From an uncultured Gammaproteobacteria bacterium (lineage in GTDB: Bacteria > Patescibacteriota > Patescibacteriia > Magasanikbacterales > GWA2-37-8), in assembly GCA_964619625.1 (NCBI GenBank), contig CAZUFD010000003.1, positions 30,282 through 94,281 on the forward strand: DNA of 64,000 nucleotides, given 5' to 3'. Made by a program: the position numbers and the translations under genes. Each line of letters opens with the position of its first letter. Position 1 is the first letter of the stretch. Below the pieces are notes generated by a model. That model was not told the DNA's origin. It worked only from the letters and a program-made list of their open reading frames with translations, and made no database searches. Below are positions 1,432-35,910 of this stretch, piece by piece.

Positions 1432-3579
1432 ATGGCAAAGTCAGCCGTGCGTAATTTGTATAAACTTTTTAACCCAGGCTCTATTGCTATTTTGGGAGCT
1501 TCGCGCGATGAAAAAAAAATCGGCAATATAGTGCTTAGAAATATTGTTAATTCCGGTTTTAGAGGCAAGATTTTTCCGGTCAATCCAAATTCCGAAGATA
1601 TAAACGGATTAACATGTTATGGCAGTTACGCGAAATTGCCGGAGATTCCGGATTTGGCAATTTTGTCATTGCCTTCGGATTTAGCTTTAGAACTTTTAGA
1701 ACCGATTGCCAAAAAAGGCACAAAAAACATTATCATATTCAGCGCCGGTTTTAAGGAGATCGGTCCTGAAGGAGAAAAAAAAGAAGAGAGCTTGCGTGCG
1801 GCCGCACAGAAATTTGGCCTAAATATTCTGGGTCCGAACTGCCTTGGCTTTGCCAGCACTGTAAGCAGTCTAAATGCCACATTTAGCAGAGTCGGCGGAG
1901 CCAGAGGAAACCTAAGATTTATGTCTCAGTCCGGAGCCTTGGCTTCCGGAATTTTTGATTGGGCTAGACAAAATGCTGTTGGTTTTAGCGAGTTTATTAC
2001 ACTCGGCAATAAAGCAGTTTTAAATGAAAACGATATTTTGCAATATTGGCTCAGTAAACCAAAAACCAAAAAACAAGAAACGGGCTTGTCTAATTGCCAG
2101 CCTATAGGTTTATATTTGGAATCAATAGACGCCGGACAAAAATTTTTAGAATTAGCAGCCAAAACTTCTCTTGCAGATCCTATTTTTATTTTAAAACCCG
2201 GTAAATCAAAGCAAGCGCAACAAGCCATTCGTTCTCATACGGGATCTATGGCCGGAGATGATGCCGTGCAAGACGCAGCTTTTGCCGAAGCCGGAGTAAT
2301 ACGCTGTGAAGGAGTAGAAGACATGTTTGATTTAGCCAAAGCTTTTTCTTGGGAAAACGCGCCGCGCGGGCCAAGAGTGGCTATAGTATCCAATGCAGGC
2401 GGTCCGGCGGTAATTAGCACCGATGCTTTAGAAAAAGAAGGTTTGGAATTGGCGGTTTTAAGTAAAAAAACATTAGCTAAACTAACAAAAAATCTTCCGC
2501 GCGCGTCTAATGTTTTAAATCCGGTGGATGTTTTGGGCGACGCGCTTTCGGATCGTTATCATGAAGCCATAAACGACGTGTTGGCTGAATCTGGCGTAGA
2601 TGCGCTGGTAATCATACTCACTCCGCAGGTGATGACGGAAGTGGAAACAACGGCCGAATTGATAGGAAAATTATCCGCCAAATATGGCAAGCCTGTAGTT
2701 TGTTCGTTTATGGGAGCCGACCTTATTCATACGGCTGAAGAAATTTTAAATAAATATAAGATTCCGTCGTTTAGATTCCCGGAACGGGCTATAAAGGCTT
2801 TGGCAAAAATGTGGCAATGGCGATCGGCAGCTGAAAAACAAAAAGCGCGCGTGAAACAGAAAAAACAAAAGTTGGTTTCTAAACATAGCACAGAAAAAAT
2901 CAATGCCATAATTCAATCTTTGGAAAAAAATAACAAAGTACTCTCGGCAACTCAAGCCGACGAGGTATTACATACTTGTGGCATTAAAACACCAAAGTCC
3001 GCAACGATTAATAATGTAGAAGAAGCGCGTAATTTCGCGCAAAAAAATAAATGGCCGGTAGTGCTTAAAATTTCTTCGCCATTTTTGATGCATAAAACCG
3101 AAGCGGGAGCCGTAATTAAAAATATAAATAATAATGAACAATTAGAAAACGCATGGACAAAAATTACGGCCATAGTAAAAAAATTACCGAATAAATCAAA
3201 CTGCTTTATACAAATTCAACAGCAAATCGGCGCGGGCGTTGAAGTTATTGCCGGCATAAAACATGACAACAGTTTTGGCAATGTGCTTATGTTTGGCGCG
3301 GGTGGAATACTGGCCGAACTAATAGGGGATAGTAATTTAAAAATGCTGCCAATAGACGAAGCTGGCGCAAAACAATTAATATTAAAATCCAAAGTCAGCA
3401 AACTACTTACCGGATTTAGAAATCAAAAATCTTTTGCCTTAAACAAACTGGCAACTTTGCTTGTAAAACTTGGAAATCTGGCGCAAACAACAAATCAGTT
3501 TAGTGAAATTACGATCAATCCGATTATAGTTACTGAAACTGATGCCTGGGCCGTAGACCCAAGAATCATAGTCAGATAA
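1432..3579 (+). CDS. acetate--CoA ligase (ADP-forming), fused alpha/beta (CoA-binding + ATP-grasp domains)
   Basis: 715 aa; N-terminal CoA-binding/succinyl-CoA-synthetase-like domain (SIAILGASRDEKKIGN...FPVNP) plus C-terminal ATP-grasp; 2 nt after ddl stop. Confidence 0.8.
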   Translation: MAKSAVRNLYKLFNPGSIAILGASRDEKKIGNIVLRNIVNSGFRGKIFPVNPNSEDINGLTCYGSYAKLPEIPDLAILSLPSDLALELLEPIAKKGTKNIIIFSAGFKEIGPEGEKKEESLRAAAQKFGLNILGPNCLGFASTVSSLNATFSRVGGARGNLRFMSQSGALASGIFDWARQNAVGFSEFITLGNKAVLNENDILQYWLSKPKTKKQETGLSNCQPIGLYLESIDAGQKFLELAAKTSLADPIFILKPGKSKQAQQAIRSHTGSMAGDDAVQDAAFAEAGVIRCEGVEDMFDLAKAFSWENAPRGPRVAIVSNAGGPAVISTDALEKEGLELAVLSKKTLAKLTKNLPRASNVLNPVDVLGDALSDRYHEAINDVLAESGVDALVIILTPQVMTEVETTAELIGKLSAKYGKPVVCSFMGADLIHTAEEILNKYKIPSFRFPERAIKALAKMWQWRSAAEKQKARVKQKKQKLVSKHSTEKINAIIQSLEKNNKVLSATQADEVLHTCGIKTPKSATINNVEEARNFAQKNKWPVVLKISSPFLMHKTEAGAVIKNINNNEQLENAWTKITAIVKKLPNKSNCFIQIQQQIGAGVEVIAGIKHDNSFGNVLMFGAGGILAELIGDSNLKMLPIDEAGAKQLILKSKVSKLLTGFRNQKSFALNKLATLLVKLGNLAQTTNQFSEITINPIIVTETDAWAVDPRIIVR

Positions 3580-3588
3580 TATTAAGAT

Positions 3589-5298
3589 ATGCAACCATTT
3601 AGCGTAAAAATTGGCGGAGAAGCGGGGTTTGGCATCATGTCCTCTGGTTTGATTTTTTCTAAAGTTGCGACTCGTTCCGGCTACCATGTATTTAATTATA
3701 TGGAGTACCCTTCCATCATTAGAGGCGGGCATAATGTAATGCAGATAATGGTATCGGAAAATCCGATTGCGGCTTCATATGAACATACGGATTTTTTAGT
3801 TGCCTTAAATCAGCAAACCATAGACCTACATGTTTCAGAGCTTTCACTAAACGCCGGTTTGATGTATGACTCGGTAACGTGCGTGCTGCCAAAACTCCCT
3901 AAAGGAGTAACTGCTTTTGACATTCCGATTGATAAAATAGTCAGAGAAATTGGCGGGTCGTTTATTTTTAGAAATACTATAGCGATCGGCGCGGCCGTGG
4001 CGCTCGTTGGAGGCGATATAAAAATTTTGAAAGATTTGTTAGCTGAAGGGTTTGCCGGTAAATCAAAAGAACTCATAGAGAAAAATTTTCGCGTTGCCGA
4101 AGCCGGATATAACTACGCGCGCCAGCGGTATGCCAATAAAATTAAGCCAATATTTGCGATAAAAAAGAAAAAACAAAAACAAATGGTAATAGCCGGCAAC
4201 GAAGCGATCGCTCTGGGTTCAATTGCCGCAGGTATGCAATTTGCCGCTATTTACCCTATGACGCCGATTAGCAATATTTTACATACCTTGGCGCCACTAC
4301 AGGAAAAATATAATTTTATTTATAAGCAGCCCGAGGATGAAATCTCGGCCATTAATATGGCTATTGGCGCTTCGTTTGCGGGAGCTAGGGCCATGACCGC
4401 GTCTGCGGGCGGGGGATTTTGTTTGATGAGTGAGGGCTATGGCTTGGCGGCTATGACCGAAACTCCGCTGGTTATTATAGAAGGTATGCGAGGCGGTCCG
4501 GCTACGGGCTTGCCAACATGGACCGAACAGGGTGATTTGCGATTTGTTTTGCATGCGCATCAAGGCGAGTTCGCAAGAATTGTTTTGGCAGCCGGTGATG
4601 CGACCGAAGCATTTCACCTCACCATGCAGGCGTTTAATTTGGCAGATAAATATCAAACCCCGGTAATAGTTATTGTTGACAAACAAGTGTGTGAAAGTCA
4701 TTTTAGCGTTAGTCCGTTTGAGTATAATAAATATATAGCAGACAGAGGAAAATTTACGGCTAAAAAACAAGCAAACTATAAACGGTATGCTCTCAGCAAA
4801 GATGGTATATCATTACGCAGCATCCCGGGTGTAGGCAACCATGTTGTCGCCAATTCCGATGAACATAATGAGCTGGGATATTCTAATGAAGAGGCTAAAA
4901 ATAGATTAGATCAAATGAGTAAGCGTATGCAAAAATTGGCTACCTGTGCCAAAGAAGATTTGCCTAAGCCGGAACTAGTCGGGCCAAAAGATGCGGATGT
5001 AACCATAGTATCCTGGGGCAGCAATAAAGGCGCAATTTTAGAAGCCATGAATTATTTTGATAATGTAAATTTTTTACATCTGACTTGGATCAGTCCGTTT
5101 CCAACCGAGGCCGTAAAAAATATTTTGCATAAAGCAAATAGAATTCTAAATATAGAATGTAATTCTACGGCGCAGATGGCCGGACTTATTAAAGAAAAAA
5201 CCGGCATTGGCATAAAAGATAATTTATTAAAATACGATGGCCGGCCGTTTTTCCCGGAAGAAATCATCGCGAAAATTATATCGATTTTACGTCGGTAA
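3589..5298 (+). CDS. 2-oxoacid:ferredoxin oxidoreductase, fused gamma-alpha subunit
   Basis: 569 aa; N-terminal gamma-domain (GGEAGFGIMSSG) followed by alpha (pyrimidine-binding/transketolase-like) domain. Confidence 0.85.
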   Translation: MQPFSVKIGGEAGFGIMSSGLIFSKVATRSGYHVFNYMEYPSIIRGGHNVMQIMVSENPIAASYEHTDFLVALNQQTIDLHVSELSLNAGLMYDSVTCVLPKLPKGVTAFDIPIDKIVREIGGSFIFRNTIAIGAAVALVGGDIKILKDLLAEGFAGKSKELIEKNFRVAEAGYNYARQRYANKIKPIFAIKKKKQKQMVIAGNEAIALGSIAAGMQFAAIYPMTPISNILHTLAPLQEKYNFIYKQPEDEISAINMAIGASFAGARAMTASAGGGFCLMSEGYGLAAMTETPLVIIEGMRGGPATGLPTWTEQGDLRFVLHAHQGEFARIVLAAGDATEAFHLTMQAFNLADKYQTPVIVIVDKQVCESHFSVSPFEYNKYIADRGKFTAKKQANYKRYALSKDGISLRSIPGVGNHVVANSDEHNELGYSNEEAKNRLDQMSKRMQKLATCAKEDLPKPELVGPKDADVTIVSWGSNKGAILEAMNYFDNVNFLHLTWISPFPTEAVKNILHKANRILNIECNSTAQMAGLIKEKTGIGIKDNLLKYDGRPFFPEEIIAKIISILRR

Positions 5299-6685: not shown

Positions 6686-7651
6686 TTACTTTTTACCGCT
6701 GTGAAATTTTTTGTGGATATCGCGCAAGCGCGGATTGGTGACGTGCGTGTAGATTTGAGTTGTAACAATATTTTTATGGCCCAGAAGTTCTTGCACGGAA
6801 CGCATATCTGCGCCTTGTTGCAGTAGATCCGTGGCAAAGCTGTGGCGCAATGTATGCGGCGTGGCATCTATGGGCAATCCGGCCATGGATCTGTATTTGC
6901 TTACCATCCGCTCTATGGAACGAGCGGTTAAACGGTTGTCATTTTCTTCATCGCCACCTTTTTTATAGTTTATAAATAGCGGTTGGTGCATGTCTTTTCT
7001 AGTTTTAAGATACTCTCCCAACCATTTTAAGGCTCGATCGGAGAAATAAATTGTACGGGTTGAACCGCCTTTTCCAGAAATGGTTAGTTCTTCATCGGAA
7101 TATTTTCCCTTTTTTAAGTTTTCCACGTTAAAGCTTCTTACATTGAGTGAAGTTAATTCGGAGACACGCATGCCGGTAGAGAACAGGATTTCTAAAATTG
7201 CCCGATCACGCAAGCCGTCCGGCTTGGAAAGGTCGGGCATGTTCATTAATTTTTCTACTTGTTCAAATTTAAGAAATTTAATTGCCTTATCTTTATCCGT
7301 AAGTTTTGGCAGCTTTATTTTTTCCGATGGCAGGGAAATGATATCTTTTTCAGCAAAATAGGCGAGGAGATTTCGTAAAGCGATCAGATAATAATTTTGC
7401 GTTGTTTTTTTATTAAAATTGCCCCGCTTATCCTTTTTTCGGGATAAAGATACGCGATAATTCCAGATATGTTCCGGGGTAAGTTCATGGGGTTTTAATG
7501 AGCCTAAATTTGATTCTTGGAGCCATTTGGTAAAGGTTTTGAGAAAGTTGTGGTAATTGCGGGTAGAAATAGGGGAGAGGCCCTTTTCAATTTCGCAGTA
7601 TTCCAAAAAAGTGGGGATGTGGAAGGTGATGGGTTGATTGGATTTGTGCAT
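6686..7651 (-). CDS. tyrosine site-specific recombinase (XerC/XerD-family integrase)
   Basis: C-terminal catalytic motifs HTLRHSFATDLLQQGADMRSVQELLGHKNIVTTQIYTHV; N-terminal SAM-like core-binding domain. Confidence 0.85.
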   Translation of the reverse strand: MHKSNQPITFHIPTFLEYCEIEKGLSPISTRNYHNFLKTFTKWLQESNLGSLKPHELTPEHIWNYRVSLSRKKDKRGNFNKKTTQNYYLIALRNLLAYFAEKDIISLPSEKIKLPKLTDKDKAIKFLKFEQVEKLMNMPDLSKPDGLRDRAILEILFSTGMRVSELTSLNVRSFNVENLKKGKYSDEELTISGKGGSTRTIYFSDRALKWLGEYLKTRKDMHQPLFINYKKGGDEENDNRLTARSIERMVSKYRSMAGLPIDATPHTLRHSFATDLLQQGADMRSVQELLGHKNIVTTQIYTHVTNPRLRDIHKKFHSGKK

Positions 7652-7690
7652 AAGCTTGTATTAACCGTATTTTTATTATATCATAAAATA

Positions 7691-7699
7691 TTATACGAC
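7691..7699. repeat. candidate att core TTATACGAC (left copy), followed by CGTATCTTAAT arm-like motif
   Basis: Exact 9-mer recurs at 11634-11642 next to a near-identical CGTCTCTTAAT motif; the two copies bracket the compositionally foreign segment. Confidence 0.3.
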
Positions 7700-7712
7700 G
7701 TATCTTAATTGT

Positions 7713-7862
7713 ATGAGTAGTTTCGTAAAAACCCGTGCGGCCACATTATTTTGGGGATTTGCGGTAACGTATTTTTTTACCGGTCATATCGTTACTTCCC
7801 TTAAGATTTTTGCCGTTATGGCAATTGGCAACACACTTATCATGTGGAAGCTAGTAAAATAA
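7713..7862 (+). CDS. hypothetical small membrane protein (49 aa)
   Basis: ATG-initiated ORF MSSFVKTRAATLFWGFAVTYFFTGHIVTSLKIFAVMAIGNTLIMWKLVK, hydrophobic; not in ORF track (below 60 aa). Confidence 0.3.
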   Translation: MSSFVKTRAATLFWGFAVTYFFTGHIVTSLKIFAVMAIGNTLIMWKLVK

Positions 7863-7872
7863 GGAGCTATAT

Positions 7873-7900
7873 TTGACATAATTATTTTATATGTTAATCT
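7873..7900 (+). promoter_or_regulatory. sigma70-like promoter (TTGACA -35, 16-nt spacer, TAATCT -10)
   Basis: Perfect -35 hexamer 7873-7878 upstream of GC-rich ORF X1. Confidence 0.45.
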
Positions 7901-7939
7901 TTGTATTTAAGACAAAAAAACACCACCAGGGAGGCATCC

Positions 7940-8317
7940 ATGAATTGGCGCGAAGTTGCAAGCCGTGATGATGTGGTGGGCGGGGAGATTGAGACCCAAG
8001 AAGGGGAGTTCATCTTCCGCGGCCCGATCACATCTGTAGAAGTTCGTGATGACGGCCTGGTCTATTTCCAGGTTGCCTGGGCAGCCCAGAAGCCCATCAG
8101 CATGGAAGGCGGATGGGTGAAGCATGAGGCCACAAGCTTCGTGGTGAGCGCACGTGTTTCGATAGAAGATATCGGTGAAGGCAAACTTCACTTCCGAACT
8201 TCGTTTGCGGAGTCCGCAACCATCTTCCTAAAGGGGAGTGGTAACAAACTGAGTCCACGCAATGTTCGTGGTCTGCGGGTTTGTAGAAGTCACAGAAGAC
8301 ATGCCAAGGCTTCTTGA
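7940..8317 (+). CDS. GC-rich small protein, family X copy 1 (hypothetical, 125 aa)
   Basis: GGGAGG SD 5 nt before ATG 7940; about 60% GC versus AT-rich surroundings; weak similarity to 9744-10097 (MNWREV/MKWKKV N-termini; W.K...S...ED motif). Confidence 0.6.
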   Translation: MNWREVASRDDVVGGEIETQEGEFIFRGPITSVEVRDDGLVYFQVAWAAQKPISMEGGWVKHEATSFVVSARVSIEDIGEGKLHFRTSFAESATIFLKGSGNKLSPRNVRGLRVCRSHRRHAKAS

Positions 8318-8391
8318 GAGGGGGAAATCAGTAAGGCCGTCCAAATTGCTTTGATTATAAAAGTTATAGTTAAAGCAATGACGGTCTTAAT

Positions 8392-8419
8392 AAAATACAC
8401 CTTTAATGAGGTGTATTTT
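8392..8419. terminator. bidirectional intrinsic terminator hairpin (AAAATACACCT...AGGTGTATTTT)
   Basis: 11-bp perfect stem between convergent X1 and Y1 genes, flanked by T/A runs. Confidence 0.5.
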
Positions 8420-8564
8420 ATTATTTAAAATTGCAAAACCACCGCCCCGAACTCATCTTTGCAGATAAAATCGGAAACGGTGGTTGAAAGAATCCTTGAT
8501 CGGCATCACTTGTTCCATAGATCAAATGTCCGAATAACTAAGACTCTAGTTGGTTACTCTGGTG

Positions 8565-8873
8565 CTACTCCTCGGCCTGGATAGCGTCCAGCGAACCGAA
8601 AAGTCTGGCGATGAAGAGATCTTCGGCAGCTCCACTGAAGTGCTGAGAAAGTTGGATCGTGATGGTGCAATCGGCGCGTCCCCGCCAGTCTCCGTGGTTG
8701 GCCACGGAGGTGAGCAGTTCGTGGTCCTCAATCGAGGCCGGCGCCAGGTAGTTCTCGGTCATCCGAAGCAGTTCTCTGACAGCGCCGGTTGCGCCGTATT
8801 TGAACTGCAGTCTCAACCTACGACTGCCGTTGCGCGCCTTCTTCAGTTCGACAGACATTTGCTCTCTCATCAT
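8565..8873 (-). CDS. GC-rich small protein, family Y copy 1 (hypothetical, 102 aa)
   Basis: GGAGG SD 5 nt before ATGATG start at 8873; TTGACC-17-TACCAT promoter on minus strand about 8928-8956; paralog of 9424-9732 and 47997-48308. Confidence 0.65.
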   Translation of the reverse strand: MMREQMSVELKKARNGSRRLRLQFKYGATGAVRELLRMTENYLAPASIEDHELLTSVANHGDWRGRADCTITIQLSQHFSGAAEDLFIARLFGSLDAIQAEE

Positions 8874-9027
8874 ACACACCTCCGAGGTGGGATGGAATTG
8901 TTTGTGCCGTGAACAAAGTAGCATGGTACCCTACTTTTAGCCCCAGGTCAATTAAATATATCAAATCTTTAGTTTATTTTTAGGAAAAATTTATTATAGT
9001 TAGTGTATAGTAAATCTTAACTATAAT

Positions 9028-9306
9028 ATGAAAATAAAGTTTTATTTAGTATTTTTCTGTCTGTTAATTTTGTTAGGCGCTGGCTGTAAAAAAGAAGAAT
9101 GGCAAGGATTTTATTATCCAAACGGCTGTCTTTCGTGCATGGAAGATTATATCTATAGCCCAACGCTTTCTTCAGTGGAAGAATGCCATAACTGGGCACA
9201 GGAAATAAAGAAAGAGCGGGGGGATAACCCAACCGATCAATATGAATGTGGTTTAAATTGTAGGGCCAAAGGTATTTTGCATGTTTGCAAGGAAACGGTA
9301 GATTAA
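9028..9306 (+). CDS. small Cys-rich lipoprotein (92 aa)
   Basis: Signal peptide with lipobox LLGAGC; AT-rich codon usage (host-like); TATAAT at about 9021. Confidence 0.55.
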   Translation: MKIKFYLVFFCLLILLGAGCKKEEWQGFYYPNGCLSCMEDYIYSPTLSSVEECHNWAQEIKKERGDNPTDQYECGLNCRAKGILHVCKETVD

Positions 9307-9373
9307 GTAAAAATTTTACTATCCGCCTGCTCTAGCAAGTCGTTTTTTAGTACTCAAATAGCGGAATAGATAA

Positions 9374-9401
9374 TTGACAATAATAATTAATGTGTTAGTC
9401 T
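9374..9401 (+). promoter_or_regulatory. sigma70-like promoter (TTGACA -35, 16-nt spacer, TAGTCT -10)
   Basis: Perfect -35 at 9374-9379; same architecture as promoter at 7873. Confidence 0.4.
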
Positions 9402-9423
9402 TATGTACCAGGAGGAAGATTCC

Positions 9424-9732
9424 ATGAAAGAGAAAGCTGCCGAAGTCCTTGGACAGGCTCTGGTGGGTACGCGGACGCTCAAGCTGACGTTCAAGCGAAC
9501 AGCTCCAGCAATTGTCTTCAGGCATCTGGATTCAATGTGGGGCAGAGGACTGTTGTTCCTCTCCAGCGGTAATCGAGTGCGACTCAAGATGCTTCTGGCC
9601 AAGGGTGCCGATTGGGGAGGGGATGAGAAGCGAGTTCTGGAGCTTACCCTTACCGTGGAATTCACGGAACAAAGCCGGGGTTGGTTTATTCGCCAGGTTT
9701 CCGATGGCCTGGACGATATCCAGGCTGTGTGA
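9424..9732 (+). CDS. GC-rich small protein, family Y copy 2 (hypothetical, 102 aa)
   Basis: AGGAGG SD 9410-9415; conserved blocks GTRTLKLTFKRTAPAIV, ADWGGDE, LTLTVEF, LDDIQA shared with Y1 and Y3. Confidence 0.7.
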   Translation: MKEKAAEVLGQALVGTRTLKLTFKRTAPAIVFRHLDSMWGRGLLFLSSGNRVRLKMLLAKGADWGGDEKRVLELTLTVEFTEQSRGWFIRQVSDGLDDIQAV

Positions 9733-9743
9733 GAGGAGTTCTT

Positions 9744-10097
9744 ATGAAATGGAAAAAGGTTGATCGGGTAAATAAAGGGATTACCATAACCGGAAATCAT
9801 GGTGTCCCGCCAACAAGATGGTGGAACCACTGGTGGCTTGCACTCTTCGGCTGGAAGACAATTGTCACGTTCCGTCTTCCTGACGAGGTAGTAGCAAGCG
9901 GGTACCATGTGGGCTTCACGGCCAAAGACGGCAAGTCATGGTGCAAGCGCGCAGTCGCGCACGATAAGTTCTTTAGCATGAAAATCGGGTACGAGGATTG
10001 CAAGTTCTGGGTCAAAACAGCCCGCAATCCCGAACAGCCCGATACGGGTGGCGCAGTGATTTTGCCCGAGCTCATCAGCAGAGGGCCTCTTCACTAA
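9744..10097 (+). CDS. GC-rich small protein, family X copy 2 (hypothetical, 117 aa, Trp-rich N-terminus)
   Basis: GAGGAG SD; ATG 11 nt after Y2 stop (operon); WWNHWWLALFGW segment. Confidence 0.65.
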   Translation: MKWKKVDRVNKGITITGNHGVPPTRWWNHWWLALFGWKTIVTFRLPDEVVASGYHVGFTAKDGKSWCKRAVAHDKFFSMKIGYEDCKFWVKTARNPEQPDTGGAVILPELISRGPLH

Positions 10098-10169
10098 GAT
10101 GCGGCCATCTTTTCCAAGACGTACCCGCCGCAAGGCGTTTTGGAAATAAAAAACTTGCGGTTTGAACAA

Positions 10170-10202
10170 AAATAACCTTCTCATGAAGGTTATTTTTGTT
10201 TT
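10170..10202 (+). terminator. intrinsic terminator (AAATAACCTTC-TCAT-GAAGGTTATTT + TTGTTTT)
   Basis: 11-bp stem plus T-run downstream of X2. Confidence 0.55.
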
Positions 10203-10261
10203 CCACCACACTATTCATTTTAGTTCTTATACTTAAACATAGATTGTGGTATAATAAATTT

Positions 10262-10438
10262 ATGTCAAAGCTAATTAGACGAAAAAGAGGAGATACAAAA
10301 ATAGGCACCATTGAAAAGATATATGGAAGGGATTTTGGTACGCGTTCAGATGCTAAGTTAGGAAATTTCTTAGAAAAAAATGGCTATGATTCATTAAGCG
10401 AGCTTTTAAGAAAAGATGACAAAAAAAGATCTAGATAA
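10262..10438 (+). CDS. hypothetical small basic protein (58 aa)
   Basis: Internal ATG of ORF 10196-10438; MSKLIRRKRGDTKIGTIEKIYGRDF; AT-rich. Confidence 0.35.
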   Translation: MSKLIRRKRGDTKIGTIEKIYGRDFGTRSDAKLGNFLEKNGYDSLSELLRKDDKKRSR

Positions 10439-11042
10439 TTTAATAAATGACGTACCAGCCCTCGAACATCTCGCTGGGCGTTTTTTATTTATAAAGGATG
10501 AAGAATTAAGACAGAATATTACCATTGCATTCCAATATATTATATTTTTAATTGCTGTTGAGGGTCAAATTACGTGGCCAGGACCAATTATATATTCTAT
10601 TTTTAAGGATATTATGGTTTACACCGGAAGCATTGTTGAGTCTTGTTTGAGGTATTGCATTAAAGAATATTTTAAGGCAGGTAAGATAGATCCTAAGGAT
10701 GTGATGATTGCAGAATGGAAAATAAATAAACACTTTCAAATTTATAAAATAGACGATAACACAGAGGTGTGTTCTTTGGTGAGGCATAAAAAATTTGAAG
10801 ATTTTGGTGATGAAACACGCTTTAAAGATATAAATAAAATTGCACAAAAAGTTGGAATTTTAACAAAAGAATTATTTGAAAAAGCTGACAGGATTAGAAT
10901 TGATAGGAATAAAGTGCATGTAGTTGCTACTGGAGAAACCCATGATTATTTTACAAAAGAAAATACACAAGCGACTTTTAAATCTGCAAAAGAGATAATA
11001 CAAAGAGTAGAGGAAAAATTATTAGAACTTAATAATAAATAA
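10416..11042 (+). CDS. hypothetical protein (208 aa)
   Basis: Long AT-rich ORF, no recognisable motifs; weak hairpin plus T5 at about 11090-11115. Confidence 0.55.
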   Translation: MTKKDLDNLINDVPALEHLAGRFLFIKDEELRQNITIAFQYIIFLIAVEGQITWPGPIIYSIFKDIMVYTGSIVESCLRYCIKEYFKAGKIDPKDVMIAEWKINKHFQIYKIDDNTEVCSLVRHKKFEDFGDETRFKDINKIAQKVGILTKELFEKADRIRIDRNKVHVVATGETHDYFTKENTQATFKSAKEIIQRVEEKLLELNNK

Positions 11043-11695
11043 AAATTTTTAGTATCTAAAGTAGGGAAGTAGTAACGCTTTGACCGCTGTGGCACCCACC
11101 AGGTGCTTTTTAGTTTATTTAATTTGGCTAACCTAAGCCAAACCTACCCTTTTTGGCTAAGATTAGCCTAATTTATGAGGGTAGGGAAGTTCATTACAAT
11201 TCACTTAGTGCACAGCCCCGTTGCTTGTCTATCACTATGACCTATGTTTCGTCTTATCGACTACTTTATAACTCATATGTGGTTGAGGTGTCGGAGGAAG
11301 AGGTTTGCCTTTGACAGCAGTGACCTCAATTCCTGTTCTACCACCGCGGACTCCAATCAACTCAAGTTGAGCTGAGACAGGAGCCTTTTGGCCGGGTTTG
11401 AGAGCTTTCATATAACTATTATGAAATGCGTGAAACAGGCCGACTAATCCTGCAGCTGCTTAATGCAGCAAGTGGTCAACTGCGAACAGCTGAGGAAAGG
11501 TCAAGTCGGGGCCGTGTATTAAATGAACTGTAGAAGTAATTATACCATTAAATGCCTAAAAGGTTTTATAAGACTGAACGGAGGCAGATTAAAGGATCGT
11601 TAAATACCGTATATATACGTCTCTTAATCTATGTTATACGACATTAAGCACAGAGGGCCCAGGGAGATAAAACCAGCCAAATAAGGCTCTCCCCC
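11040..11695. other. 650-nt ORF-free, highly structured region (candidate ncRNA or att/arm region)
   Basis: No ORF of 60 aa or more on either strand; nested inverted repeats (TTGGCTAACCTAAGCCAA; CCTACCC...GGGTAGG; GGCTAAGATTAGCC; GGGAGA...TCTCCC); repeated GTAGGGAAGT; lies between convergent gene ends. Confidence 0.4.
11634..11642. repeat. candidate att core TTATACGAC (right copy), preceded by CGTCTCTTAAT
   Basis: Matches 7691-7710 motifs. Confidence 0.3.
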
Positions 11696-12715
11696 CTATT
11701 TCCAATATACCTTTTCGCCAAAACGAAGATCTATATATTCCTTTGGTTTTATGGTTGGTAGAATCTGCTTAAAGGTATCTATTTGCGCGTCCAGATTATT
11801 TTTTGGTTGGAAAATAATACTCCAGGATTCTTTGGTATCAATTACCATTCCGGCATTTACATCGTCTAAAACGAAGAATTTAGGCGCTGTCCTCCCCTGC
11901 TCGGCCAACTCTCGCTGCCAGGTAATGGCCGAGGTAATAAATTCAGTTGGTAAGATACCGGATTTCTTTAATTCAATTTCAAGATTTCGTCTGTCATATA
12001 TTAAGGGATATCTGCCAAATAGTTTTCGGATTTTTTCATAATTTGGCGCATGTTTAACCGAGGATGTTGTAATAATTGGTGTGGAAGTGGTGCTGGAAGT
12101 AAACGAAATGCTTAAACTAGTGGTTACAGTTTCCTTTAAAAATTCCCCGGCCTCAACATCCGTTAAATATTTGATTGCGGTTCCTTCGCTATCCAATAAG
12201 AAATATTTCTTACCATTATCATAAATAATAGAGGAAATTTTTTCCTTAACTTCTATATTTAATTCATTAGGAAATACCTTTGTAACCCGAACGCTTTCCA
12301 ATGATAATATATTATATAAATCCTTTGAAATGCTGCCTTCATCAACAAAGAAGTAGTTATTTAAAGGAAGTCTGCTTTTCTTGTTTAAATAATTTTGAAA
12401 TACGACTTGATCCAATTCTGCTCTGGTATTATTTTCCAGTCCAAAATAATTAACTTTATTAATTCTAAAGTATGGTAAATATGCCAAGCAGGCCGCCCAG
12501 GATATAAGTAAAATAAGAAGTATAATCAACTTTAGCTTGGGACTTCTCTGTTTCTGTCTTCGCTCCGCTTTAAATGGATTTGATTTATAATGTAATGACT
12601 GGTTTGGAGCGGCAACAGAGTATTGTTTTTTTCTAAAAAGGCGTAAAATTTTTTTACGCCAGCTTACGTGGGGTTTATATTTTTCAAAAGCGTGTTCAGA
12701 ACGGAAATGCTTCAT
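11696..12715 (-). CDS. cell division protein FtsQ/DivIB-like (POTRA-containing membrane protein)
   Basis: Basic cytoplasmic N-terminus, single TM (LILLILLISWAACLAYL), periplasmic domain; follows mre/PBP2 region on the same strand. Confidence 0.5.
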   Translation of the reverse strand: MKHFRSEHAFEKYKPHVSWRKKILRLFRKKQYSVAAPNQSLHYKSNPFKAERRQKQRSPKLKLIILLILLISWAACLAYLPYFRINKVNYFGLENNTRAELDQVVFQNYLNKKSRLPLNNYFFVDEGSISKDLYNILSLESVRVTKVFPNELNIEVKEKISSIIYDNGKKYFLLDSEGTAIKYLTDVEAGEFLKETVTTSLSISFTSSTTSTPIITTSSVKHAPNYEKIRKLFGRYPLIYDRRNLEIELKKSGILPTEFITSAITWQRELAEQGRTAPKFFVLDDVNAGMVIDTKESWSIIFQPKNNLDAQIDTFKQILPTIKPKEYIDLRFGEKVYWK

Positions 12716-33796: not shown

Positions 33797-33930
33797 GCAT
33801 TTTTACAGGTGGATTGTTGTTGATAAAACTGCAGCTACAGAACCCAGCGGCCACACTCTCTAGATTTATGGCTGTTTTTGTTTATTTTGGCTAATTTTAA
33901 ACTAAAAATAGATAAAATTTTGATAAAGTA

Positions 33931-33959
33931 TTGACAAAACACGAACTTATTGTTACTAT
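33931..33959 (+). promoter_or_regulatory. sigma70 promoter TTGACA-17-TACTAT
   Basis: Perfect -35, 17-nt spacer, 5/6 -10; about 80-nt leader with RBS in hairpin loop (AACGGC GAAAGGA GCCGTT). Confidence 0.55.
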
Positions 33960-34041
33960 TGCTCGTTATGTAGAAGCGGCACGCAGGGGGTGTGCAACTT
34001 CTCATAATAGACCCTAAACGGCGAAAGGAGCCGTTTTCCCG

Positions 34042-34392
34042 ATGACCGACTACCAGAACCCTGATCCCGAACTTTTTGGTCTGGAGATCGCAGTCCATTT
34101 GGGCTGGCTCGCCGGTACCGAAGCCCCTCCACTAGAAGACGAGGGGGCAGAGATCACGATCAGCGAGTTTTCCGACGCTGATCTGTTCAACTTGGAGGTC
34201 GAACACGCAGTCGACACTGCCGTTGTCGTGCCAGAGCCCGCTGGGCTGAAGGCGGCAACTGCGGAACCGACCAGCGTGGATGATGGTTGGGAGATGGAAA
34301 ACACGGGTGACAGCCAGGAGAATACCCAGGTTGATCGCCCGCGTCACATGATCATTACGGCAGAAGGTCCCCGTCTGGTCCACCACGAGTAG
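34042..34392 (+). CDS. GC-rich highly acidic protein (116 aa, hypothetical)
   Basis: AAAGGAG SD; Asp/Glu/Pro-rich; about 60% GC. Confidence 0.6.
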   Translation: MTDYQNPDPELFGLEIAVHLGWLAGTEAPPLEDEGAEITISEFSDADLFNLEVEHAVDTAVVVPEPAGLKAATAEPTSVDDGWEMENTGDSQENTQVDRPRHMIITAEGPRLVHHE

Positions 34393-34417
34393 TTGGGTGT
34401 GCCGGCGCGAAGCATCT

Positions 34418-34481
34418 GTTCGCCGCCGCACTACCGCTTTCAAGATAAAAAAATTTGTCTTGTAAAGCGGTGGCGGCGAAC
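34418..34481. repeat. 64-nt imperfect inverted repeat (GTTCGCCGCC...ACCGCTTT / AAAGCGGT...GGCGGCGAAC) around an A-rich loop
   Basis: 10 + 8 bp stems with 5-nt bulge; directly after stop of 34042 gene; no T-run. Confidence 0.5.
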
Positions 34482-34508
34482 TTCAAAAAAACAGATATAA
34501 CAAAAAAT

Positions 34509-34530
34509 CCGCACGTGAGCGGGTTTTTTG
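34509..34530 (+). terminator. intrinsic terminator CCGCACGTGAGCGG + GTTTTTTG
   Basis: 4-bp GC stem, 6-nt loop, T6. Confidence 0.6.
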
Positions 34531-34583
34531 TTATATTGACCATTTACTTAAAATATGGTACGAATTATTTAGGAGGGATCAAC

Positions 34584-34700
34584 ATGAATCTTGCCGAGGA
34601 ATTGATTGGATCTGCCCTGGAAATCTTCCTGAACTGGATGGCGATCATGTACCGTATCCGGGAACTCTTCCGGGTTGACCTCTTCCCCTTGTCCTCCTAG
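34584..34700 (+). CDS. candidate 38-aa peptide
   Basis: AGGAGGG SD 6 nt before ATG; MNLAEELIGSALEIFLNWMAIMYRIRELFRVDLFPLSS; TTGACC at 34536. Confidence 0.4.
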   Translation: MNLAEELIGSALEIFLNWMAIMYRIRELFRVDLFPLSS

Positions 34701-34792
34701 TTAGTACCTTGTATCGGGCTTCACGCCCAGTACGTCGTCCTAGAGAGGGCAGCAACCAGCGGTGTCACACACTGTTGTGACGCCGCAACACA

Positions 34793-34825
34793 AAAACAGC
34801 TTTCAACGTAAGGCTGTTTTTGTTT
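34793..34825 (+). terminator. intrinsic terminator (AAACAGC...GCTGTTT + TTGTTTT)
   Basis: 7-bp stem plus T-run. Confidence 0.6.
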
Positions 34826-34882
34826 TCAACAATTGACCCATTTTATATAAGTATGCTAGTTTACATACAAGGAGGTAGTGGT

Positions 34883-35143
34883 ATGAAGAAGGATGCAAAT
34901 TTCTTTGAGAACTTGGTGGATTGGATCAAGGAGTCGCTGCGTACGTTGCAGCTAGACGAGGTGTTGGAAGATCTTGCTTACTGGGTGGGAAAGTTCGTTA
35001 TTGAGGTGAGCAAAGAGCTTACTCCTGAAGGTTTGCAGAAGTTCTTCAGCGGTTTGAGCGGCGGGTATATCAATACGATGGACCTAGACATCGATCTGGA
35101 TGGAGTGCAACCCGATGAACTTCTCTGCAAGAAAAGCAGGTAG
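34883..35143 (+). CDS. GC-moderate small protein (86 aa, hypothetical)
   Basis: AAGGAGG SD; TATAAG -10 at 34845-34850. Confidence 0.55.
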   Translation: MKKDANFFENLVDWIKESLRTLQLDEVLEDLAYWVGKFVIEVSKELTPEGLQKFFSGLSGGYINTMDLDIDLDGVQPDELLCKKSR

Positions 35144-35164
35144 CGCCTCTACTGCGCAAGGTCT

Positions 35165-35205
35165 TCGCCTCGCCCGAAAATTCGGAGCGAGGCAATGTAT
35201 TTTTA
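35165..35205 (+). terminator. intrinsic terminator hairpin (GCCTCGCCCGAA..TTCGGAGCGAGGC) + T-rich tail
   Basis: Long GC stem after stop of 34883 gene. Confidence 0.5.
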
Positions 35206-35251
35206 TAGGAAAAATGGATTACGTTTAATTTTTAAATATTGCTAGCACCCC

Positions 35252-35280
35252 TTGACAAAAGGGGTGTTTTGGTGTATAAT
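35252..35280 (+). promoter_or_regulatory. perfect consensus sigma70 promoter TTGACA-17-TATAAT
   Basis: Exact consensus hexamers with 17-nt spacer; -35 embedded in palindrome CACCCCTTGACAAAAGGGGTG. Confidence 0.7.
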
Positions 35281-35409
35281 GTCGGGTTGCTCTTTTAATA
35301 GACAGTCTTATTTGCCCCGGGGCAAGAATGCGTCAAATTAGCGCTTTCTCGCCCCTCGGCAACCAAGATTTCGCCGAGACAACCATTTTCCGTGAGAGGA
35401 TCGAAACAA

Positions 35410-35820
35410 ATGAAGAACTTCCGCACCCAGTTCACCTCCATCGCCAGCAACCTGATCATCCTGATCATCGCGCTCGCCTTCGTCCTCACGGGCGGGACGA
35501 CCACGGTCAACTCGGCCTACGCCGACGGCTCCGCGATCACCGTCCGCAAGAACGGCAAGAGTTTCCCGCTCACGCAGAAGCACCGCAACGCGATCAGCGA
35601 GATCGAGCACATCATGCGCCGGTCGGGCGACAACCAGAAGCAGCCGACGAAGTTCTTGTACTCCTGCAACCAGGGGAACGAGAAGATCCGGCAGATCGTC
35701 GCCACCTTCCCCGCGGATGAGCAGTTCATCATGTCGGACGAGTGGGACGGCGAGTGCTTCTTCTACATCCCGCCGACCCGGAAGGTCAACAAGACGCCGG
35801 TGATGGTCGCCAAGAAGTAG
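35410..35820 (+). CDS. secreted small protein with signal peptide (136 aa), extreme GC3 codon usage
   Basis: GAGAGGA SD; signal peptide ...LIIALAFVLTGGTTTVNSAYA; about 68% GC with GC3-saturated codons unlike host. Confidence 0.65.
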   Translation: MKNFRTQFTSIASNLIILIIALAFVLTGGTTTVNSAYADGSAITVRKNGKSFPLTQKHRNAISEIEHIMRRSGDNQKQPTKFLYSCNQGNEKIRQIVATFPADEQFIMSDEWDGECFFYIPPTRKVNKTPVMVAKK

Positions 35821-35873
35821 CAACACCCTGGTCGTGTTCGCGCCCCAAGCGCGGCCACGGCCTACGGCCCAAC

Positions 35874-35910
35874 GAACCCCGCACGCAAGTGTCGGGGTTC
35901 AGTATTTTTA
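35874..35910 (+). terminator. intrinsic terminator GAACCCCG...CGGGGTTC + T-run
   Basis: 8-bp GC stem followed by AGTATTTTTA. Confidence 0.65.

Follow-up and report, generated by a model that had tools for sequence, protein, structure and literature searches.

A stretch of some 650 nt that lies between convergent genes, carries many palindromes, and shows no obvious gene raises the question of whether it encodes an RNA, serves as a target of recombination, or does neither. The interval considered here (11040-11695) belongs to a 64-kb window, by which the whole stretch of DNA analysed is meant, and an initial annotation had described it as free of open reading frames (ORFs) and as either an unclassified structured RNA or a recombinase att arm region. 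The interval is best read as a composite located at the replication terminus of a genome from the Magasanikbacteria (candidate phyla radiation): it combines a probable 28-bp Xer/dif recombination site, a gene for a conserved protein of 58 residues, and DNA made up of a terminator and palindromes, with no new RNA gene among them (Table 1). The flanking genes are indeed convergent, with a 208-aa ORF (plus strand) ending at 11042 and an ftsQ-like POTRA gene (minus strand) ending at 11696, and the repeats listed for the interval are all real to within 1-2 nt: the inverted repeats TTGGCTAACCTAAGCCAA (11124-11141) and GGCTAAGATTAGCC (11155-11168) were found, the 10-mer GTAGGGAAGT is present twice, at 11061 and 11181, and a GAGGAAAGG stretch stands near 11493. 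CCTACCC (11143-11149) and GGGTAGG (11179-11185) are both present with a spacer of 29 nt rather than 28, as are GGGAGA (11662-11667) and TCTCCC (11688-11693) with one of 20 nt rather than 21. The assertion that no ORF reaches 60 aa is literally correct, yet misleading, as the interval contains the conserved 58-aa minus-strand gene, which makes about 27% of the supposedly “ORF-free” sequence coding; the 60-aa cut-off had concealed a real gene. The protein-coding remnant that had been named as grounds against the proposal was found as an intact gene rather than a decayed one.

Table 1. Features of the terminus locus in window coordinates, with a point where no strand applies.
Feature	Position	Strand	Basis or remark
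xer, tyrosine recombinase of the Xer family, 321 aa, presumed site partner	6686-7651	-	Pfam Phage_integrase E = 1e-41
Xer half-site followed by TGATATAAT	7675-7701 (-10 hexamer 7675-7680)	-	
Xer half-site ACGTCGTATAA, 11/11 match to left arm	7691-7701	-	sequence
208-aa gene, convergent with small gene	10416-11042	+	within 1.5-kb segment absent from closest relative
Conserved block TATCTAAAGTAGGGAAGTA with first GTAGGGAAGT copy	11054-11072	+	common to L061, L063
Intrinsic terminator of 208-aa gene, GGCACC-CACCA-GGTGCT then TTTTT	11091-11112	+	terminator scan
Two tandem 14-18-bp palindromes TTGGCTAA-NN-TTAGCCAA	11124-11141, 11153-11170 (block 11121-11173)	.	29 bp apart
CCTACCC-N29-GGGTAGG stem around second palindrome	11143-11185	.	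window-specific
Right arm of inverted repeat, then junction TTGTAATGAACTTCCCTACC (11178-11197)	11195-11220	.	junction common to L005
58-aa YjzC-like gene (MKALKPGQKAPVSAQLELIGVRGGRTGIEVTAVKGKPLPPTPQPHMSYKVVDKTKHRS)	11235-11411	-	31 homologues, phrog_3202
Left arm, 26-nt imperfect inverted repeat	11507-11532	.	pairs with 11195-11220, 81% complementary
Extended -10 box TGGTATAAT, putative small-gene promoter	11539-11547	-	sequence
dif-like Xer core site ATGTCGTATAA CATAGA TTAAGAGACGT (uninterrupted, ATGTCGTATAACATAGATTAAGAGACGT)	11617-11644	-	11-6-11 architecture
GGGAGA-N20-TCTCCC hairpin, between ftsQ stop and dif	11662-11693	.	sequence
ftsQ-like (POTRA_1) gene	11696-12715	-	Pfam POTRA_1 E = 1.9e-5

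The 58-aa protein has 31 homologues at 51-73% identity (down to E = 8e-19) and aligns at full length with members of the YjzC-like family (phrog_3202, E = 3.6e-7; PF14168, recognized in 7/31 homologues), although Pfam gives no match at E <= 0.1 for the protein of the window. The homologues occur in unrelated contexts, including beside a rolling-circle Rep gene, and genes of this type are carried by phages and small replicons as well. Its transcription may start near 11532, to judge from the extended -10 box, whose TGnTATAAT motif also precedes xer in L061, L063, and the window and to which L005 has a homologous promoter-like block. DNA-level conservation between this locus and the homologue loci is limited to the coding part; a conserved leader or riboswitch upstream of the gene was rejected, as the coding sequence is all that the six homologue loci have in common with the window. 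The 26-nt inverted repeat that brackets the gene forms a long-range stem in folds of both strands and would pair the ends of its mRNA.

Two rival readings give the interval a principal content other than the dif-like site. That the whole interval encodes a single unclassified structured non-coding RNA, transcribed from either strand, draws on numerous local hairpins and on a fold of the entire 656 nt far below that of shuffled sequences (z = -6.0 for the minus and -5.4 for the plus strand, from only 20 shuffles each). However, with similar values on both strands the fold excess is strand-symmetric, which points to DNA inverted repeats and not to an RNA; it stems largely from the 26-nt, 81% inverted repeat around the small ORF, with a further contribution from local palindromes, and none of the sub-regions stands out (z = -1.5, -0.6, and -2.0). 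Rfam (Rfam 15) gave no match at gathering thresholds across the whole window and only four chance-level matches in the region at E <= 10, the best of them (E = 0.4) unrelated and none of them RNase P, tmRNA, or SRP RNA, the identities weighed in the initial annotation; ARAGORN found neither tRNA nor tmRNA, and the relatives likewise gave no Rfam or ARAGORN match to known structured RNA families. A CRISPR-DR33 match at 11051-11087 (E = 0.95) was discarded, as the repeat array is absent. Further, 177 nt are a conserved protein gene, and outside the 28-mer, this ORF, and the palindrome block nothing recurs in ~40 related loci, where no other non-coding conservation or covariation was detected, the palindrome stems being invariant without compensatory support and the CCTACCC/GGGTAGG stem unconserved. 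An RNA gene spanning the interval is accordingly considered most improbable, and the density of palindromes at a terminus reflects DNA-level sites and terminators, not an RNA. The repeat-bracketed gene (11195-11532) might on the other hand be a self-contained cassette, resembling either a MITE or a type I toxin mRNA with 5′-3′ end pairing, and as such the noteworthy feature instead of dif. The inverted repeat does flank the ORF, and L005 carries a perfect 22-bp counterpart with the same outer bases, promoter-like block, and 3′ junction around a different cargo, in which no YjzC-like ORF was found. However, these are two examples only, the shared-junction motif gave only chance matches in viral contigs and no further copy in the window or loci, a target-site duplication is not evident in the window, and the protein is hydrophilic, widely conserved, and unlike type I toxins, all of which render a cassette unlikely. 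GTAATGAACTTCCCTAC was also tried as a mobile-element end and rejected, its six IMG/VR matches all being in unrelated coding DNA.

The reading that we favor centers on the 28-mer, which, outside the 58-aa ORF, is the only deeply conserved element of the region in ~40 related loci. It comprises two 11-bp imperfect inverted arms around a 6-bp center, within the size and geometry expected of a dif site (~28 bp; ~11-bp imperfect inverted arms; 6-8-bp center), and, with as many as 3 mismatches allowed, occurs once in the 64 kb against a chance expectation of none, and as one full copy in each related locus. The consensus over ~30 distinct loci is ACGTCGTATAA CATAGA TTAAGCGACGT, with conservation dropping at the 28-bp edges; arm symmetry amounts to 9/11 in this consensus and 7/11 in the window copy, and arms this close to symmetry point to one binding specificity. 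For 32 loci the central 19 nt of the site served as the search pattern, so invariance there is partly by construction, and the unbiased loci are only the 10 reached through FtsQ or Xer. Without use of the motif, the site was recovered via FtsQ in L003-L005 and via Xer orthologues in L061, L063, L064, and L066 (identical or nearly so) and in L065 and L067 (variant); 11 of 43 metagenome matches (one human-gut contig family, L040, L045) were dismissed as chance, their flanks being dissimilar. In 21 of the 28 informative loci, the site stands between a sigma-70 promoter and the start codon of a Xer-type tyrosine recombinase, an orthologue (phmmer E <= 5.5e-52) that begins 4-172 nt past the site. 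The ftsQ stop codon forms a conserved left anchor, with ftsQ orthologues preceding the site in most related loci. The window departs from this adjacency, as its xer lies 3.96 kb from the dif-like site, yet a cognate Xer-family tyrosine recombinase is present: the protein is best described by the TIGR XerD and XerC models (227 and 222 bits, both below equivalog cut-offs), its orthologues across Magasanikbacteria are 71-87% identical, and it is the one tyrosine recombinase among the window ORFs that were scanned, which are part of those in the 64 kb.

The site also marks a switch in strand composition. GC skew flips from plus to minus at the site in 8/8 loci for which each flank extends to 2 kb or more, and the cumulative maximum falls ~50-230 nt from it in L061, L063, L064, and L065, a set that includes two loci with xer 3-6.7 kb away. 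The window maximum is at 12123, against 11617-11644 for the site, and gene orientation converges there; terminus position is thereby given by local skew only (64 kb), a measure partly confounded with gene orientation. With this sequence anatomy, conservation, linkage to xer, and position at the skew switch, we interpret the 28-mer as dif, the site at which chromosome dimers would be resolved, in a module with one recombinase comparable to difSL/xerS, with a probability of about 0.78; Xer binding, recombination, autoregulation, and promoter use are inferred. The initial annotation was therefore near the mark in suspecting recombination, as a tyrosine-recombinase target does lie at the edge of a variable segment, but neither an arm-type cluster nor an RNA integration target was found, and none of the repeats it listed is the single core-type Xer (dif) site. 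Among related candidates, an integrase arm-type cluster or phage att region was rejected because the only repeated 10-mer is GTAGGGAAGT, the first copy of which sits in a block conserved independently of an integrase, and because the recombinase is Xer-like and 4 kb off, with no phage genes present; an integron attC or cassette was rejected as the integron model scored 100 bits against a cut-off of 265 and a cassette array is absent.

These observations allow a mechanism to be proposed by which the module may operate and may have come apart. By analogy with known Xer systems, each 11-bp arm would bind one monomer of the single Xer-type recombinase, and strand exchange at the arm/center borders would resolve chromosome dimers. 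In most Magasanikbacteria the order is ftsQ, sigma-70 promoter, dif, xer, which places the site at the predicted start of xer transcription or immediately behind it, where it probably serves as an operator as well. The window is a split derivative of this single-recombinase dif-xer module. Here and in the genomes nearest to this one, dif and xer have become separated by 0.4-7 kb of variable DNA, xer has retained a half-site at a new TGnTATAAT promoter, and the rest of the flagged interval (promoter, YjzC-like gene, palindromes, and terminator) is part of that variable DNA. The half-site stands 39 nt upstream of the xer start codon, and an equivalent layout of arm, N9-10, and TGnTATAAT precedes xer in L061, L063, and L002. 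The order of sites in the window, with the full site at ftsQ and the left-arm half-site at xer, is not the one predicted for a simple Xer-mediated insertion into a promoter-dif-xer module. The 410-nt dif-xer insert of L066 was tried as an RNA gene and rejected (no Rfam or ARAGORN match; z = -1.75).

The same loci bear on two further interpretations. It could be argued that the 28-mer is only an operator or leader of xer, or a phage-integrase attB, and not a dimer-resolution site, as in loci of the typical layout it overlaps the point where xer transcription is predicted to start, and half-sites at the xer promoter where the full site is distant make an operator role likely, at least in addition. 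However, the intact 28-mer lies 0.4-6.7 kb from xer in the window, L061, L063, and L066, where it cannot be an operator, and in split loci the GC-skew maximum coincides with the 28-mer rather than with xer; moreover, an 11-6-11 geometry characterizes recombination core sites and the hybrid junction in L063 is broken exactly at the arm/center border, while for an attB there is no associated phage integrase and the motif gave no match in viral contigs (IMG/VR). A role confined to operator or attB is therefore improbable. It is possible, although doubtful, that the DNA between dif and xer (7702-11616) consists of one or several integrated elements that exploit Xer (IMEX-like), with the palindromes and inverted repeats as element parts, for instance an origin of replication or accessory sites of an attP. 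Insertion of IMEXs at dif is well established in other systems, the segment is variable (different DNA in the window, L002, L061, L063, and L066), the palindrome block invariably occurs close to dif within inserted DNA of this sort, relatives of the small gene are found on phages and rolling-circle replicons, and window positions 7652-8956 are non-coding with a higher G+C content. The arrangement expected of such an element, with dif on one side and a direct-orientation dif/attP hybrid on the other, is found in L063, whose centre-plus-right-arm hybrid is of textbook form; however, no such hybrid exists in the window, whose second site is instead a left-arm half-site beside xer; its order is wrong for simple integration, and it resembles a conserved operator in the xer promoter. 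Nor was any replication or mobility gene found in the segment, and the absence of the dif motif from IMG/VR contigs weighs against this reading as well. A simple IMEX model was rejected for the window, as the site order does not fit.

Under the favored reading of a split dif-xer module, the relatives provide several informative variants. In L002, the closest relative (97% for FtsQ), in which the 1.5-kb segment at window positions 10199-11691 has no counterpart, dif is replaced by another 11-6-11 palindrome (ATTGAGTATAA TATCTC TTACACTCAAT, arms 10/11), which lies behind a TTGACC-17-TATAAT promoter and before a different Xer-like gene, and the old xer is truncated. Site and recombinase have been replaced together, a co-variation of site and enzyme; the replacement site can also be written ATTGAGTATAATATCTCTTACACTCAAT. 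In L063, the full site is at 1201 and the hybrid (GCGAAGTGTTC CATAGA TTAAGAGACGT) is at 3952, 2.7 kb away and in direct orientation, and its break at the arm/center border may be read as an indirect trace of recombination. A further, invariant half-site, ACGTCGCTTAAtat, lies ~540 bp downstream of dif inside the xer ORF, where it forms the codons T-S-L-N after GMRVSEL with all synonymous positions fixed; it is also given as ACGTCGCTTAATAT. This internal half-site co-varies with the dif arms (ACTTCG... in L065 and ATGTCG... in L067) and is decayed in 4/4 sampled lineages with dif-xer insertions (window, L061, L063, and L066), which represent at least two independent events. We tentatively suggest, as a possibility rather than an expectation, that Magasanikbacteria have a three-site Xer module and that the GCTAA-NN-TTAGC palindromes near dif are bound by a terminus-associated or IMEX-encoded protein. 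If true, the three-site module would imply that Xer and DNA form a looped complex, with autoregulation of xer or protection of the module as its function.

Single-recombinase systems have been described elsewhere. In streptococci and lactococci, difSL is located immediately upstream of the single recombinase gene xerS (Le Bourgeois et al., 2007, PMC1914069), and autoregulation was proposed in the same paper. In common with the Magasanikbacteria locus, this system has one Xer-type gene and an upstream site as a terminus module, the site probably being in or after the xer promoter. However, difSL is 31 bp with an 11-bp center, as opposed to 28 bp with a 6-bp center, XerS is ~356 aa and the NCBIfam XerS model gives only 119 bits (cut-off 267) on the window Xer, the site sequences are unrelated, and the window module is split by ~4 kb, an arrangement predicted to be selected against (PMC1914069). 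In the XerH system of Helicobacter and Campylobacter, dif is again near the recombinase gene, and the Legionella mobile element LME-1 carries a dif mimic, integrates at dif, and leaves a modified second site (PMC5357621, PMC9765430). XerH/difH and the XerL/dif of Legionellales are likewise single-recombinase systems, and the second site of LME-1 resembles the L063 hybrid, although the recombinase subfamily and site sequences differ and no mobile element carrying a dif mimic was identified in the present case. With XerCD/dif of E. coli and B. subtilis and archaeal XerA/dif, the locus shares the 11-6-11 structure, a skew-defined terminus, and inner arms of the form ...TATAA / TTA...; in contrast, XerCD comprises two paralogous recombinases encoded far from dif, whereas the present locus has one linked gene and near-symmetric arms (consensus 9/11). 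In a comparison with the E. coli dif sequence, ~15/28 positions match. This is similar to archaeal dif, reported to match the bacterial consensus at 14/28 (PMC2958812). No paper joining Xer/dif with Patescibacteria or the candidate phyla radiation was found in the full-text literature. A sequence-defined dif provides an exact terminus marker for the mostly fragmentary genomes of this radiation, and such a marker aids assembly checks, coverage-based estimates of replication rate, and the finding of dif-integrating elements. The locus further offers natural experiments on single-recombinase modules, namely a swap of site plus enzyme between near-identical genomes, several independent dif/xer splits, and a hybrid junction, and it bears on the old proposal that a dif inside the xer promoter protects against insertions (PMC1914069).

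The GGGAGA-N20-TCTCCC hairpin stands where most relatives have a TTGAC-N17-TATAAT promoter and is partly common to L004 and L005 as GGGAG-GGCTTATTTGG; it was rejected as an intrinsic terminator because it has no T-run. The 208-aa protein has no Pfam, NCBIfam, or PHROG match and no homology to the 214-aa neighbor of a YjzC homologue. At the place of its terminator, L061 also has a hairpin and T-run, with the different stem GCGCTC...GAGCGC. The two ORF-poor stretches of the window are unrelated. The palindrome block is kept in L061 (5826-5923), L063 (2117-2209), and L005 (3301-3357), with palindrome arms invariant and centers variable over four lineages; RNAalifold gives it no supporting covariation, and the pair is probably a protein-binding site, a putative assignment made from this pattern of invariance. 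The columns matching the CCTACCC/GGGTAGG stem differ in the same three loci. The second GTAGGGAAGT copy (11181-11190) overlaps the GGGTAGG arm of that stem (11179-11185) and extends to 11190, and several loci of the typical layout have a similar GTAGGGAAG after the stop codon of ftsQ.

The intergenic interval at window 11040-11695 is bounded by a 208-aa plus-strand ORF (ending at 11042) and an ftsQ-like POTRA gene (minus strand, ending at 11696), and it is probably, with a likelihood of a little under four in five, a composite terminus region in which the chromosomal dif of a single-Xer module is the main element; on this best explanation the composite also includes a small gene of the mobile type, terminators and a pair of conserved palindromes. 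The site matches dif in 11-6-11 architecture, terminus position and Xer linkage. A protein search with the FtsQ-like product retrieved Candidatus Magasanikbacteria (CPR/Patescibacteria) genomes, and comparison of these loci with the window revealed a single short block conserved far above expectation: GTCGTATAACATAGATTAAGMGAC (minus strand) is identical in the related loci L003, L004 and L005, whose adjacent FtsQ-like proteins are only 50-61% identical, and this 24-mer occurs once in the window, with 0 copies expected by chance. When metagenomes were scanned with a 19-nt stretch of the block, 43 loci were returned, 11 of them unrelated chance matches that were set aside; the ~30 distinct loci remaining stay conserved for a further 4 nt on the left of the 19-nt pattern and 4-6 nt on its right, beyond which conservation collapses. 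The consensus, ACGTCGTATAA CATAGA TTAAGCGACGT, consists of two 11-bp arms, which are 9/11 inverted repeats, and a 6-bp centre, and the window copy differs from it at two points, both variants occurring in other loci. The ascertainment bias of a motif scan was countered by fetching loci through Xer orthologues (71-87% identity): in L064 the full site stands 17 nt upstream of xer, the copies in L061 and L066 are perfect, that in L063 has 2 mismatches, and L065 (ACTTCGCATAA CAGAGG ATAAAAGAAGT) and L067 (ATGTCGTATAA GATAGA TTAAATGACCC) have diverged sites in the same place.

In the typical locus, the ftsQ-like stop is followed by TTGAC-N17-TATAAT, ~7 nt, the 28-mer, 4-172 nt and the start codon of a tyrosine recombinase, and the downstream ORF is an orthologue of the window recombinase (phmmer E <= 5.5e-52) in 21 of the 28 loci with sufficient downstream sequence. 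The window enzyme is Xer-like, scoring 227 bits against the XerD model and 222 bits against XerC, both below the equivalog cut-offs. GC skew, in part confounded by gene orientation and read here from local sequence, is positive to ~12 kb and negative beyond, with a cumulative maximum at 12123, and the window genes converge on the site region. The same switch from positive to negative falls at the site in each of the eight loci that extend 2 kb or more to both sides, and the cumulative maximum lies ~50-230 nt from the site in L061, L063, L064 and L065; since in L061 and L063 it lies this close to the site and 3-6.7 kb from xer, it is the site, not the gene, that the switch in skew follows.

Site and enzyme also appear to be exchanged together. 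L002 is the closest relative, with an FtsQ 97% identical to that of the window, yet window 10199-11691, with dif, the small gene and the 208-aa gene, is wholly absent; directly after ftsQ (L002 5050-6074) there is instead a promoter (TTGACC-17-TATAAT), a palindrome and a 314-aa Xer-like gene that differs from the window-type xer, the L002 copy of which is truncated after ~46 codons (8431-8571). The palindrome is a different 11-6-11 site, ATTGAGTATAA TATCTC TTACACTCAAT, with arms matching at 10/11; no other 11-6-11 TAA/TTA palindrome in the 9-kb locus reaches 9/11 arm matches, and none in the window's 64 kb does. If the recombinase has the palindrome as its own target, replacement of both partners at a single locus is what one would expect. 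A perfect 16-bp palindrome stands precisely where, on the right-hand side, the segment differing between window and L002 is bounded.

Features of the window and the decayed half-sites of its relatives
Feature	Position	Strand	Sequence	Remark
Recombinase gene (xer)	6686-7651	minus
Decayed half-site, window xer	7143-7153	minus	ACTTCACTCAA
Decayed half-site, L061			GTAGCGCTTAA
Decayed half-site, L063			ACATCGCTCAA
Decayed half-site, L066			ACGGGGCTCAA
Perfect left arm	7691-7701		ACGTCGTATAA, then TGATATAAT	39 nt before xer start
Palindrome	10165-10200		AACAAAAATAACCTTC-gaag-GAAGGTTATTTTTGTT
26-nt inverted repeat	11195-11220 / 11507-11532			81%
58-aa ORF	11235-11411	minus	MKALKPGQKAPVSAQLELIGVRGGRTGIEVTAVKGKPLPPTPQPHMSYKVVDKTKHRS
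Extended -10 box	11539-11547		TGGTATAAT	~7 nt before left arm of 26-nt repeat
28-mer (proposed dif)	11617-11644	minus	ATGTCGTATAA CATAGA TTAAGAGACGT
GGGAGA/TCTCCC hairpin	11662-11693			Replaces usual promoter

The initial annotation proposed a structured RNA or recombination arm sites in an ORF-free, palindromic region. Its repeats are all present on direct reading, although two have spacers of 29 and 20 nt and not the 28 and 21 nt claimed, and no ORF reaches 60 aa; "ORF-free" is nonetheless an artefact of that threshold, because a conserved 58-aa ORF lies there. Its 31 homologues (51-73% identity, E down to 8e-19) include seven carrying Pfam PF14168 (YjzC-like), and a phrog_3202 match spans its full length (E = 3.6e-7). 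The homologues occupy unrelated contexts, one next to a rolling-circle Rep gene, and their loci have no flanking sequence in common with the window. Against an RNA gene, Rfam 15 at gathering thresholds gave 0 matches and ARAGORN no tRNA or tmRNA across the 64-kb window, while permissive settings over 10800-11900 gave four chance-level matches (best E = 0.4), none to RNase P, tmRNA or SRP. The whole 656 nt does fold better than shuffles (z = -6.0 and -5.4 on the two strands, 20 shuffles each), but the excess is equal on both strands and is due largely to the long-range stem of the 26-nt inverted repeat bracketing the small ORF; three non-coding sub-regions fold no better (z = -1.5, -0.6 and -2.0). 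Strand-symmetric folding, the protein gene inside and absent conservation thus led us to reject the structured RNA. The observation itself holds in part; the recombination-site idea was right in spirit but was aimed at the wrong repeats, the proposed site being the 28-mer. L005 carries a promoter-like block homologous to the window's and an inverted repeat that is perfect over 22 bp; the outer bases of the repeat and its 3' junction (TTGTAATGAACTTCCCTACC) are those of the window, but the cargo is unrelated.

Among the annotated repeats, the CCTACCC/GGGTAGG stem is not conserved in the related loci compared, and the GGGAGA/TCTCCC hairpin is partly common to L004 and L005. The block at 11046-11175, which holds the 208-aa gene's terminator, is 80-92% conserved in L061 and L063, with partial conservation in L005, despite different flanking genes; the L061 terminator keeps the hairpin and T-run with a different stem sequence. 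Within the block, two palindromes (TTGGCTAA-NN-TTAGCCAA) lie at a distance of 29 bp; their centres vary and their arms do not, a pattern that fits protein-binding DNA better than RNA, and RNAalifold found no supporting covariation. Together with a half-site inside xer, this pair most deserves follow-up. Wherever dif directly precedes xer (L006-L048, L064, L065 and L067), the inverted right arm of dif, ACGTCGCTTAAtat, is invariant inside the xer ORF at ~+540 from dif, spanning codons T-S-L-N after GMRVSEL; every synonymous position is fixed while neighbouring codons vary, and the half-site co-varies with the dif arms (L065 ACTTCGCTTAA, L067 ATGTCGCTTAA). It is decayed in 4/4 lineages with dif and xer apart.

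XerS/difSL is characterised by a dif placed immediately upstream of its one xer gene, a layout that also occurs with XerH/difH (PMC1914069, PMC5357621, PMC9765430), and Legionella XerL/dif was revealed by a mobile element carrying a dif mimic (PMC5357621, PMC9765430). The present module differs from XerS/difSL in its 6-bp centre (11 bp in difSL), its unrelated site sequence, its shorter, XerC/D-like recombinase and, in the window genome, the splitting of dif from xer, which adjoin in XerS/difSL. Le Bourgeois et al. speculated that a dif-in-promoter layout would disfavour insertions (PMC1914069); however, insertions recur in Magasanikbacteria, with xer gaining its own promoter. Full-text searches returned no paper in which Xer/dif is linked to Patescibacteria or to the candidate phyla radiation.

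In the window, 3.96 kb separates xer from the site, and the intervening DNA differs in every lineage examined. Arm, N9-10 and TGnTATAAT follow one another likewise in L061, L063 and L002, so the left arm upstream of the window xer probably serves as operator for a replacement promoter. In L061, two dif arms stand tail-to-tail upstream of xer (7937-7962; TTAAGCGACGG gcca ACGTCGCATAA), directly before a TGGTATAAT -10 box; this looks like an operator assembled from arm sequences, whose geometry would not allow recombination. L063 has a full site (1201-1228) and, a further 2.7 kb downstream in direct orientation, a hybrid with an unrelated left arm (GCGAAGTGTTC|CATAGA|TTAAGAGACGT; 3952-3979), broken exactly at the arm/centre border as left by integration of an IMEX (integrative mobile element exploiting Xer). 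The bracketed segment, a candidate for an element that integrated by way of Xer, holds three unannotated ORFs, of which one is 321 aa long. No such centre-plus-right-arm hybrid occurs in the window, and a simple integration origin of its 4 kb does not fit the site order. In the more distant L066, a 410-nt non-coding insert (2590-3000) between a perfect dif and xer has a T-arm-like hairpin (ACTGG-TGCAAAT-CCAGT), with no ARAGORN or Rfam match and a fold z of only -1.75.

Two stretches of the window are ORF-poor, with overlapping ORFs on both strands. That at 33800-35900 (short ORFs, G+C 0.50-0.53) is not rRNA, because it has no Rfam match, and is similar neither to the other stretch nor to any fetched locus. 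The other, 2.7 kb at 7652-10416 (G+C 0.45-0.48 against ~0.40), has no Rfam, Pfam or PHROG matches and is ~91% identical to L002, with 1- and 22-nt indels; mismatches over 7652-8956 number 26/28/34 by codon position, against 30/5/4 in ftsQ, and this lack of periodicity, with the indels, points to non-coding or decayed terminus DNA.
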